A DNA stretch of 64,000 nucleotides from Escherichia phage vB_EQ1: the sequence record PQ516281. One strand, written 5' to 3'. Under the pieces are notes generated by a model. It saw only the letters and a program-made list of their open reading frames with translations, searched no databases and had not been told where the DNA came from. This document shows, one piece after another, positions 21,882-22,061 of the stretch. The position numbers and the translations under genes are program-made. Every line of letters starts with the position of its first letter. Positions within the stretch are counted from its first letter, which is position 1.

Positions 21882-22061
21882 TTATGCAACAACCTTTCCA
21901 AAACGAGAAGCATCATCTCGAAGAACTGCACGTGCTCTGCGCATGATCTTCTCAACTGTTTGATTAATACGAGAGTTCGACCCACGCTTGTATCCAGCGC
22001 GTTTAGAGGTACCATCAACTTTCTTTTCAACTGCTTTCTTTGCTTTAGCTTGTTTTGCCAT
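21882..22061 (-). CDS. 59-aa lysine/arginine-rich small protein, below ORF-track cutoff
   Basis: ATG with AAGAGAA RBS; MAKQAKAKKAVEKK…; followed by strong UUCG hairpin; coordinates inferred from track frame. Confidence 0.35.
   Translation of the reverse strand: MAKQAKAKKAVEKKVDGTSKRAGYKRGSNSRINQTVEKIMRRARAVLRDDASRFGKVVA

Follow-up and report, generated by a model that had tools for sequence, protein, structure and literature searches.

T4 gp32, RegA and gp43 are demonstrated RNA-binding proteins whose genes follow structured leaders, with a 5′ pseudoknot in the case of gp32 and an operator hairpin in that of gp43. Arginine-rich-motif peptides, such as lambda N, HK022 Nun and HIV Rev and Tat, are short, highly basic and largely disordered until bound. 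The PeSL elements place an early-promoter-like sequence after a stem-loop (PMC2839356, PMC4122927), and the T-even early-promoter consensus in these cassettes is TTTACW-N17-TAYWAT (PMC4122927). The locus described here can be set beside all of these, and its direct counterpart is T4 gene 30.9. This gene is already known (synonym 31.-2) and was sequenced in the early 1990s; on the function of gp30.9, our literature search turned up nothing but a citation to Driukas & Nivinskas 2003. In T4 the 30.9 transcript is classed as early (Class_Tx early; PMC9697503), and the 30.9 protein went undetected in the time-course proteome (Class_P = NA; PMC9697503). The non-detection is weak evidence, because tryptic digestion of a Lys/Arg-rich 58-mer leaves hardly any usable peptides. 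Knocking down T4 30.9 by CRISPRi-ART resulted in a score of 0.04 with p = 0.26 ('Not Fit'; PMC11879866), which argues that the gene is dispensable in the laboratory host.

We analyzed 64,000 nucleotides of Escherichia phage vB_EQ1 (PQ516281), and this whole stretch of DNA is referred to as the window. A 59-aa minus-strand ORF within it is very probably the orthologue of T4 gene 30.9—a real and already annotated gene that lies between rIII and 30.8, has its own intrinsic terminator and is conserved across Straboviridae (Table 1). Over this region the window shares 99% identity with RB69-like T4-type phages (Mosigvirus: JM17, G53 and ATK47), and 769 phage records match it; tblastn with the 30.9 protein gives hits in 1006 phage records. 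An identical 59-aa CDS in phage ATK47 is annotated '30.9; T4 gene synonym 31.-2' (ANZ51003.1). The gene is annotated also in G53, T6, JS98 and the T4 RefSeq, where the 58-aa counterpart is NP_049823 at 130364..130540. PHROG 1427 (function unknown) is matched over residues 1-57 at E = 2.4e-31, with phmmer hits down to E = 1.6e-26. A sequence-only reading of the window had presented the ORF as an unannotated gene and had proposed a homology search with its 59 residues. That search leads to PHROG 1427, to the T4 protein and to the identical ATK47 CDS; the ORF was missing only from the 60-aa track used by that reading, as the gene is annotated in the T4 RefSeq and in most relatives.

The order rIII-30.9-30.8, all on the minus strand, is the same in T4, T6, JS98 and ATK47, with rIII upstream of 30.9 in most of 40 loci; gp31 and dCMP deaminase are encoded further upstream of rIII, also on the minus strand. 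Gene 30.9 is conserved in phages of Escherichia, Klebsiella, Serratia, Yersinia, Pectobacterium, Cronobacter and Pseudomonas. The T4 and window proteins share position, strand, the MAKQAKAKK start, the SKRAGYKRGSNSRINQTVEKIMRRARAVLRDDASRFGK core and the downstream terminator, at approximately 93-95% identity. The window protein is one residue longer (VDGT, compared with VGD in T4), and the C-terminal residues are KVVA in place of KQKA. As a gene call, 30.9 changes nothing; it is an example of a real, well-conserved T4 gene lost to a 60-aa cut-off. Its product belongs to the large set of conserved early T4 proteins labelled 'hypothetical', and its range extends from coliphages to Pseudomonas phages.

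Orthologues of 30.9 carry misleading labels in some records. Those of AV116, FP43, vB_EcoM_P8 and PMBT63 (UniRef) are named '1,4-alpha-glucan (glycogen) branching enzyme', and one other is named 'lysis inhibition accessory protein'; both types of label are propagated mis-annotations of a 58-aa protein. The most distant homologue, in Pseudomonas phage PspYZU05 (L007, 566-934), has 92 aa with a Lys/Ala/Pro-rich C-terminal tail. It lies directly after gp31, without rIII, structured spacer or terminator, and has its own textbook early promoter, GTTTAC-N17-TATTAT, approximately 35 nt upstream.

Table 1 Features of the gene 30.9 locus, in coordinates of the window
Feature	Position	Strand	Basis or remark
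Gene 30.8, downstream neighbor	21383..21751	minus	Pfam PF06019 Phage_30_8, E = 6.7e-44; PHROG 1507
Overlapping 61-aa TTG-start ORF, +1 frame	21845..22030		ORF listing; passes through terminator hairpin
Predicted intrinsic terminator: 8-bp stem A-GGGAGAC / GUCUCCC-U, UUCG loop, then UUUUGUG	21852..21877	minus	Fold and annotation in relatives
59-aa ORF (30.9), MAKQAKAKKAVEKKVDGTSKRAGYKRGSNSRINQTVEKIMRRARAVLRDDASRFGKVVA	21882..22061, stop included	minus	ATG start; ORF listing
Translation initiation region: weak Shine-Dalgarno AAGAG (22074-22070) within weak hairpin AUUUUC-AUUUAAA-GAGAAU	22067..22085	minus	Sequence
Entire spacer between rIII and 30.9 (296 nt), non-coding and presumed to be the 5′ leader of 30.9	22062..22357	minus	Conserved position
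Spacer ORF 1, 57 aa, GTG	22074..22247	minus	In frame with 30.9; corresponds to N-terminal extension of old 97-aa T4 call
Conserved leader core: hairpin CCC(C)UUGAGGG, invariant CUUGCG, hairpin GCAGG-CAAUGUCAAUAAGU-CCUGC	22086..22125	minus	Alignments
Conserved upstream module: TATGAT, hairpin GAC-G-AGG...CCU-GUC (22172-22149), A-rich linker GUUAAAUAUCCAAAA, 3′ segment	22131..22178	minus	Relatives' sequences
Spacer ORF 2, 37 aa, TTG	22174..22287	minus	Annotated CDS in phage G53
Long imperfect stem enclosing perfect 8-bp A/U hairpin UAAUGAUU-UGCG-AAUCAUUA	22226-22320	minus	Sequence
rIII, lysis-inhibition accessory protein, upstream neighbor	22358..22606	minus	PHROG 1457, E = 3.8e-43; annotated rIII in relatives

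Taken by itself, the length of the ORF does not exceed chance expectation, as many spurious ORFs of 25-77 aa occur in the same 3 kb; what argues for its being real is its conservation. Between the window and Klebsiella phage KLB8, differences at codon positions 1, 2 and 3 number 5, 5 and 19, and of the codons that differ in the 59-aa frame, 15 are synonymous and 6 non-synonymous. The summed entropy at the three positions is 27.5, 22.8 and 51.4 across 35 distinct CDS from approximately 40 relatives. The MAK start, the invariant SKRAGYKRxSNxR motif and the terminator all recur in these approximately 40 relatives, and MAK or MSK opens the protein in all relatives compared. Judged by the placement of its substitutions, the ORF is shown to be under purifying selection, with translation starting at the conserved MAK and following the 59-aa frame. 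In agreement with the sequence-only reading, the frame is thus genuinely coding, as third-position substitutions, start and PHROG match all indicate. That reading had suspected its own base count of being off by one. Its coordinates and peptide match the ORF listing exactly, the ORF opens with ATG as it had said and closes with UAA at 21884-21882, and no frame correction is needed. Its description of the ribosome-binding site as good is overstated, since the site is a moderate AAGAG, 8 nt from the ATG, without GGAGG.

Two other products have to be weighed against the 59-aa protein. The overlapping TTG ORF would make the 59-aa frame incidental, and it is the one of the two that passes the 60-aa cut-off. 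Its +1 frame is open by chance in 7 of the 35 distinct relatives, but stops break it in 28 of the 35 distinct CDS, including those of JS98, KLB8 and STP4-a. Moreover, it has a TTG start without a Shine-Dalgarno sequence, runs through the terminator hairpin and matches neither PHROG nor Pfam, and the substitution periodicity belongs to the 59-aa frame. The comparative data therefore already refute it as a gene, and we give it practically no chance. The earlier suggestion that this is the wrong frame, to be checked by looking for relatives that conserve it, is borne out by the same interruptions and by the lack of a family match.

The second candidate is a longer product that starts upstream in the spacer, of the type of the 97-aa '11.1 kDa protein' or of the 68-102-aa calls made elsewhere. 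N-terminally extended versions are annotated in several records and in UniProt P17310, which is still over-extended at 97 aa ('Uncharacterized 11.1 kDa protein in Gp30-rIII intergenic region'), and in many relatives the frame upstream of 30.9 is open for tens of codons. However, no peptide is conserved among the extensions, their lengths vary among close relatives, and the T4 RefSeq now uses the 58-aa form. Upstream of 30.9, pairing is kept while the encoded residues change non-conservatively, for example from GAC/GTC to GTG/CAC. In the window, an in-frame TAA at 22074-22076 shuts the frame four codons 5′ of the ATG; 59 aa is therefore the maximal ORF, and the 97-aa reading once proposed for T4 is ruled out here. 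A longer product is thus very improbable, and we retain the 59-aa protein.

The 3′ end of the gene is marked by a hairpin that is, on the criteria of stem, loop and U tract, a predicted intrinsic terminator conserved across the relatives. The UUCG hairpin that the sequence-only reading had placed immediately after the stop is indeed there: UUUU separates the UAA from A-GGGAGAC-UUCG-GUCUCCC-U (21877-21858), which is followed by UUUGUG. The folding energy of this hairpin is -19.2 kcal/mol (z = -3.2), with 1 of 200 shuffles equally good, and both ATK47 and G53 carry a terminator annotation for it. A hairpin with a T tract directly follows the stop in all 39 distinct relatives printed except Pseudomonas phage L047, which has a longer homologue. 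The stems vary between relatives (GGACUCC/GGAGUCC, GGGAACC/GGUUCCC, GGGGCUCC/GGAGCCCC), which amounts to covariation for a terminator. Our scan for sigma-70 and terminator consensus sequences listed neither this hairpin nor a promoter for 30.9; the hairpin was omitted because its tail is too T-poor once the A-U closing pair is counted. Neither a late promoter (TATAAATA) nor a complete MotA box turned up when the sequence upstream of 30.9 was scanned for motifs.

A candidate for the promoter lies in the 5′ part of the spacer. After the long imperfect stem the window reads TTTACG-N16-TATTTT, and T6 has TTTACG-N17-TACTAT at this point. The segment resembles a PeSL-like terminator/promoter cassette between rIII and 30.9, with stem-loop and early-promoter-like sequence in the same arrangement, and would supply a putative promoter. 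It is nearly identical in T6 and JS98 despite diverged flanking genes, and the mosaic state of the spacer between phages is as expected at PeSL recombination points. PeSLs are short, however, at approximately 50-70 bp, and leave the conserved hairpins and linker farther downstream in the spacer unexplained. A literature search for genome-wide T4 transcription start sites found none.

The spacer itself is long for these compact genomes: in nearly every relative, 30.9 is preceded by an unusually long, conserved, hairpin-rich non-coding segment in an otherwise tightly packed genome, and its length is 120-416 nt in relatives with the rIII-30.9 order. It is mosaic between phages, with recurring modules. 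In the upstream module, the outer pairs of the 22172-22149 hairpin are swapped between relatives (GAC/GUC, GUG/CAC, GUC/GAC, GGC/GCC). In many lineages the loop of this hairpin has its complement in the 3′ segment (UUAGUAG/CUACUAA, UUGUGAG/CUCACAA, UUCAAGG/UCUUGGG), and an H-type pseudoknot is therefore suggested. When pairs are counted over 26 distinct sequences, 84.6% of cells pair in the hairpin, where UA/AU/GC and CG/GC/UA swaps occur, and 68% pair in the helix between loop and 3′ segment. Covariation scores 0.393, compared with 0.201 in shuffles (0 of 500 reach 0.393) and at most 0.203 with slid partners, for a structure that was derived by eye from the very sequences scored, which are moreover mutually related. 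G-U pairs occur on the 30.9-sense strand and therefore favor an RNA of that polarity. The leader type of the window fits the pseudoknot poorly: to form the second helix it has to shift register (AGGUUU/AAACCU), in competition with the hairpin.

Between the upstream module and the gene lies the leader core, which reads CCCCUUGAGGG-CUUGCG in the window and has the general form CCCYUYGAGGG-CUUGCG. Its first hairpin hardly varies; L048 has GCC/GGC. The second hairpin is swapped at a fixed place for unrelated stems of variable length (CUGG/CCAG, GGGAGC/GCUCCC, GUGGAG/CUCCAC, GGCGA/UCGCC). The hairpin at the Shine-Dalgarno sequence is weak in the window, with a local fold of only -1.9 kcal/mol, and relatives have a stronger one that covers the site (UCUCCA-AAA-UGGA(A)GA or CCUC-UAUU-GAGG). 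Taken singly, the leader sequences fold with energies no better than those of shuffles, and RNAalifold recovered just one 3-bp helix from the gapped mosaic alignment. A search of Rfam 15 with the leaders of the window and four relatives, which covered preQ1-type pseudoknots, the T4 gene 32 leader and ribozymes, gave chance-level scores far below gathering thresholds, and the spacer contains no tRNA-like genes.

Coding and promoter readings of these modules fared less well. TATGAT is at best a putative -10 box: the -35 region differs between leader types, and T4 has AATGAT. A conserved upstream peptide (YDDEVYGYPVVKYPKP-like) was set aside, as its frame has stops in several relatives, its variation is non-periodic and pairing is kept over amino-acid identity. 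The 57-aa GTG ORF has no PHROG match, and the equivalent frame contains stops in several relatives. Both spacer ORFs overlap the RNA-like modules, and for this reason, together with the missing PHROG match of the first, they are probably not genes. The leaders of JS98 (L003, approximately 430-560) and KLB8 (L005, approximately 400-560) carry an extra module of about 120 nt, absent from the window, with several strong hairpins such as GAGGCG...CGCCUC, UAUACA...UGUAUA and ...GGUGUGCAACAGAUAAGAG. This extra module lies 5′ of the first hairpin in some phages and 3′ of it in others, so the leader modules have been shuffled. The rIII-30.9 spacer may be a regulatory leader.

The protein is as strongly basic as the sequence-only reading had found it: 10 K and 8 R among its 59 residues, a net charge of +13 and a pI of 11.35 at 6.6 kDa. 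AlphaFold, given a 28-sequence alignment, predicts one long helix at residues 20-53, with pLDDT of 88-89 for residues 31-50 (mean 69) and low confidence for the basic N-terminus. In this model gp30.9 would be a disordered Lys/Ala tail joined to one long amphipathic, Arg-rich helix. On our reading of the sequence, the helix has a hydrophobic stripe (I32, V36, I39, A43 and V46/L47) and a basic face (R31, K38, R42, R44 and R48). Residues S19, K20, R21, A22, Y24, K25, R26, S28, N29, R42 and V46 are invariant in the alignments, and the core S-K-R-A-x-Y-K-R-x-S-N-x-R at residues 19-31, followed by R-A-R-x-V at 42-46, is kept in distant homologues. Fold searches were omitted because the model is a single helix, whose matches mean nothing.

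An exhaustive HMM search of 1.84 billion representative proteins returned only 20 clusters, with no informative domain fusions among them. They are small stand-alone proteins with the same motif, some of the distant ones (e.g., P0071 and P0073) with Lys/Ala/Pro-rich C-terminal tails added. The exceptions are P0068, a low-complexity repeat protein that was set aside; P0035 (92 aa), a chimera of a P-type ATPase fragment and gp30.9 on a short metagenomic contig; and P0052 (75 aa, labeled Shigella flexneri), in which gp30.9 residues 1-46 run into a +1-frame reading (FEMMLLVLVSRKHKL...), so that its sequence is either frameshifted or in error. Neither the protein nor two of its distant homologues had a usable match in Pfam, NCBIfam or PADLOC. 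For gp30.9, Pfam had nothing at E <= 0.1, the PADLOC families related to anti-phage defence nothing at E <= 1, and NCBIfam only a sub-threshold YbaK (13.9 bits against a cut-off of 153). The sole hint from PDB profiles aligns 25 residues to SlmA residues 122-162 at E = 0.085. It lies outside the N-terminal HTH and is most likely due to chance; the matched helix does not bind DNA and the query is too short for the domain, which speaks against SlmA/TetR-family membership. Nor does gp30.9 resemble the small proteins of type I toxin-antitoxin systems, at a GRAVY of -0.9, with its net charge of +13 and without a hydrophobic stretch.

As the sequence-only reading had reasonably proposed, the composition and predicted shape of gp30.9 suggest nucleic-acid binding, more likely of RNA than of DNA. 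Among the mechanisms considered this tentative reading ranks first, and we give it somewhat less than an even chance. The disordered Lys/Ala-rich N-terminal tail, the invariant SKRAGYKRxSNxR segment and the basic face of the approximately 34-residue amphipathic helix would all take part in binding, and the hydrophobic face may mediate self-association or docking on a partner.

Its basic charge would suit an acidic host protein as a binding partner equally well. In that case gp30.9 would be a small early inhibitor acting in host take-over or counter-defence, and not a nucleic-acid binder. Early, dispensable, small and phage-restricted are the marks of T4 accessory or anti-host genes such as Dmd, Arn, AsiA and Stp. 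For 30.9 they are seen in the early T4 transcript, the knock-down without fitness defect on the laboratory host and the 20 clusters among 1.84 billion proteins, and the modelled amphipathic helix fits protein docking. Against this stand the lack of a match to any known anti-defence or defence-related family and the retention of gp30.9 in phages of many genera, from Escherichia to Pseudomonas; this breadth argues for a general rather than strain-specific target. We place the inhibitor reading second and consider it rather unlikely. A ribosome-associated gp30.9—a substitute small basic ribosomal protein or a hibernation-type factor—would fit its size, charge and tail-plus-helix shape, which resemble those of small ribosomal proteins, and RIII, the product of the neighboring gene, binds ribosomal protein S1 (PMC9409239). 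Neither Pfam nor NCBIfam matches gp30.9 to a ribosomal protein, RMF or related family (E <= 0.1-1), however, and the PDB profile search returned no ribosome chains, so that we allow this reading only a slim chance.

If gp30.9 binds nucleic acid, one target may be its own long, structured, conserved leader, with autogenous translational control as the outcome, like that of gp32, RegA and gp43 in T4; we judge this decidedly unlikely. In its fullest form the proposal would be that the spacer is an undescribed modular structured RNA of T4-like phages with gp30.9 as its cognate RNA-binding protein, the two forming a self-contained riboregulatory cassette, autogenous or condition-sensing. The RNA would comprise a 5′ hairpin/pseudoknot, the CCCYUYGAGGG-CUUGCG core, the variable hairpin and a hairpin occluding the Shine-Dalgarno sequence. 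We regard this as a long shot. The conserved structured spacer, which may act together with gp30.9, is the sole lead with some novelty at this locus, and a tentative one; were it true that protein and leader cooperate, the best-studied family of phages would gain a small regulatory module not described before.

Comparison with described RNA-binding systems brings out partial resemblances. The Arg-rich helix of gp30.9, RRARAVLR, could sit in an RNA groove like the arginine-rich-motif peptides. Its invariant SKRAGYKRxSNxR has no counterpart in lambda N, HK022 Nun or HIV Rev/Tat, Pfam provides no match to support the likeness, and N-type antitermination is not known from T4. The proteins gp32, RegA and gp43 are larger and folded, and have no sequence or fold relationship to gp30.9; the 30.9 leader, at 90-300 nt and mosaic, is also unlike theirs. 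The likeness to these T4 genes is one of architecture: 30.9, too, follows a conserved structured leader, possibly with a pseudoknot, its ribosome-binding site lies in or next to weak structure, and its product plausibly binds nucleic acid.
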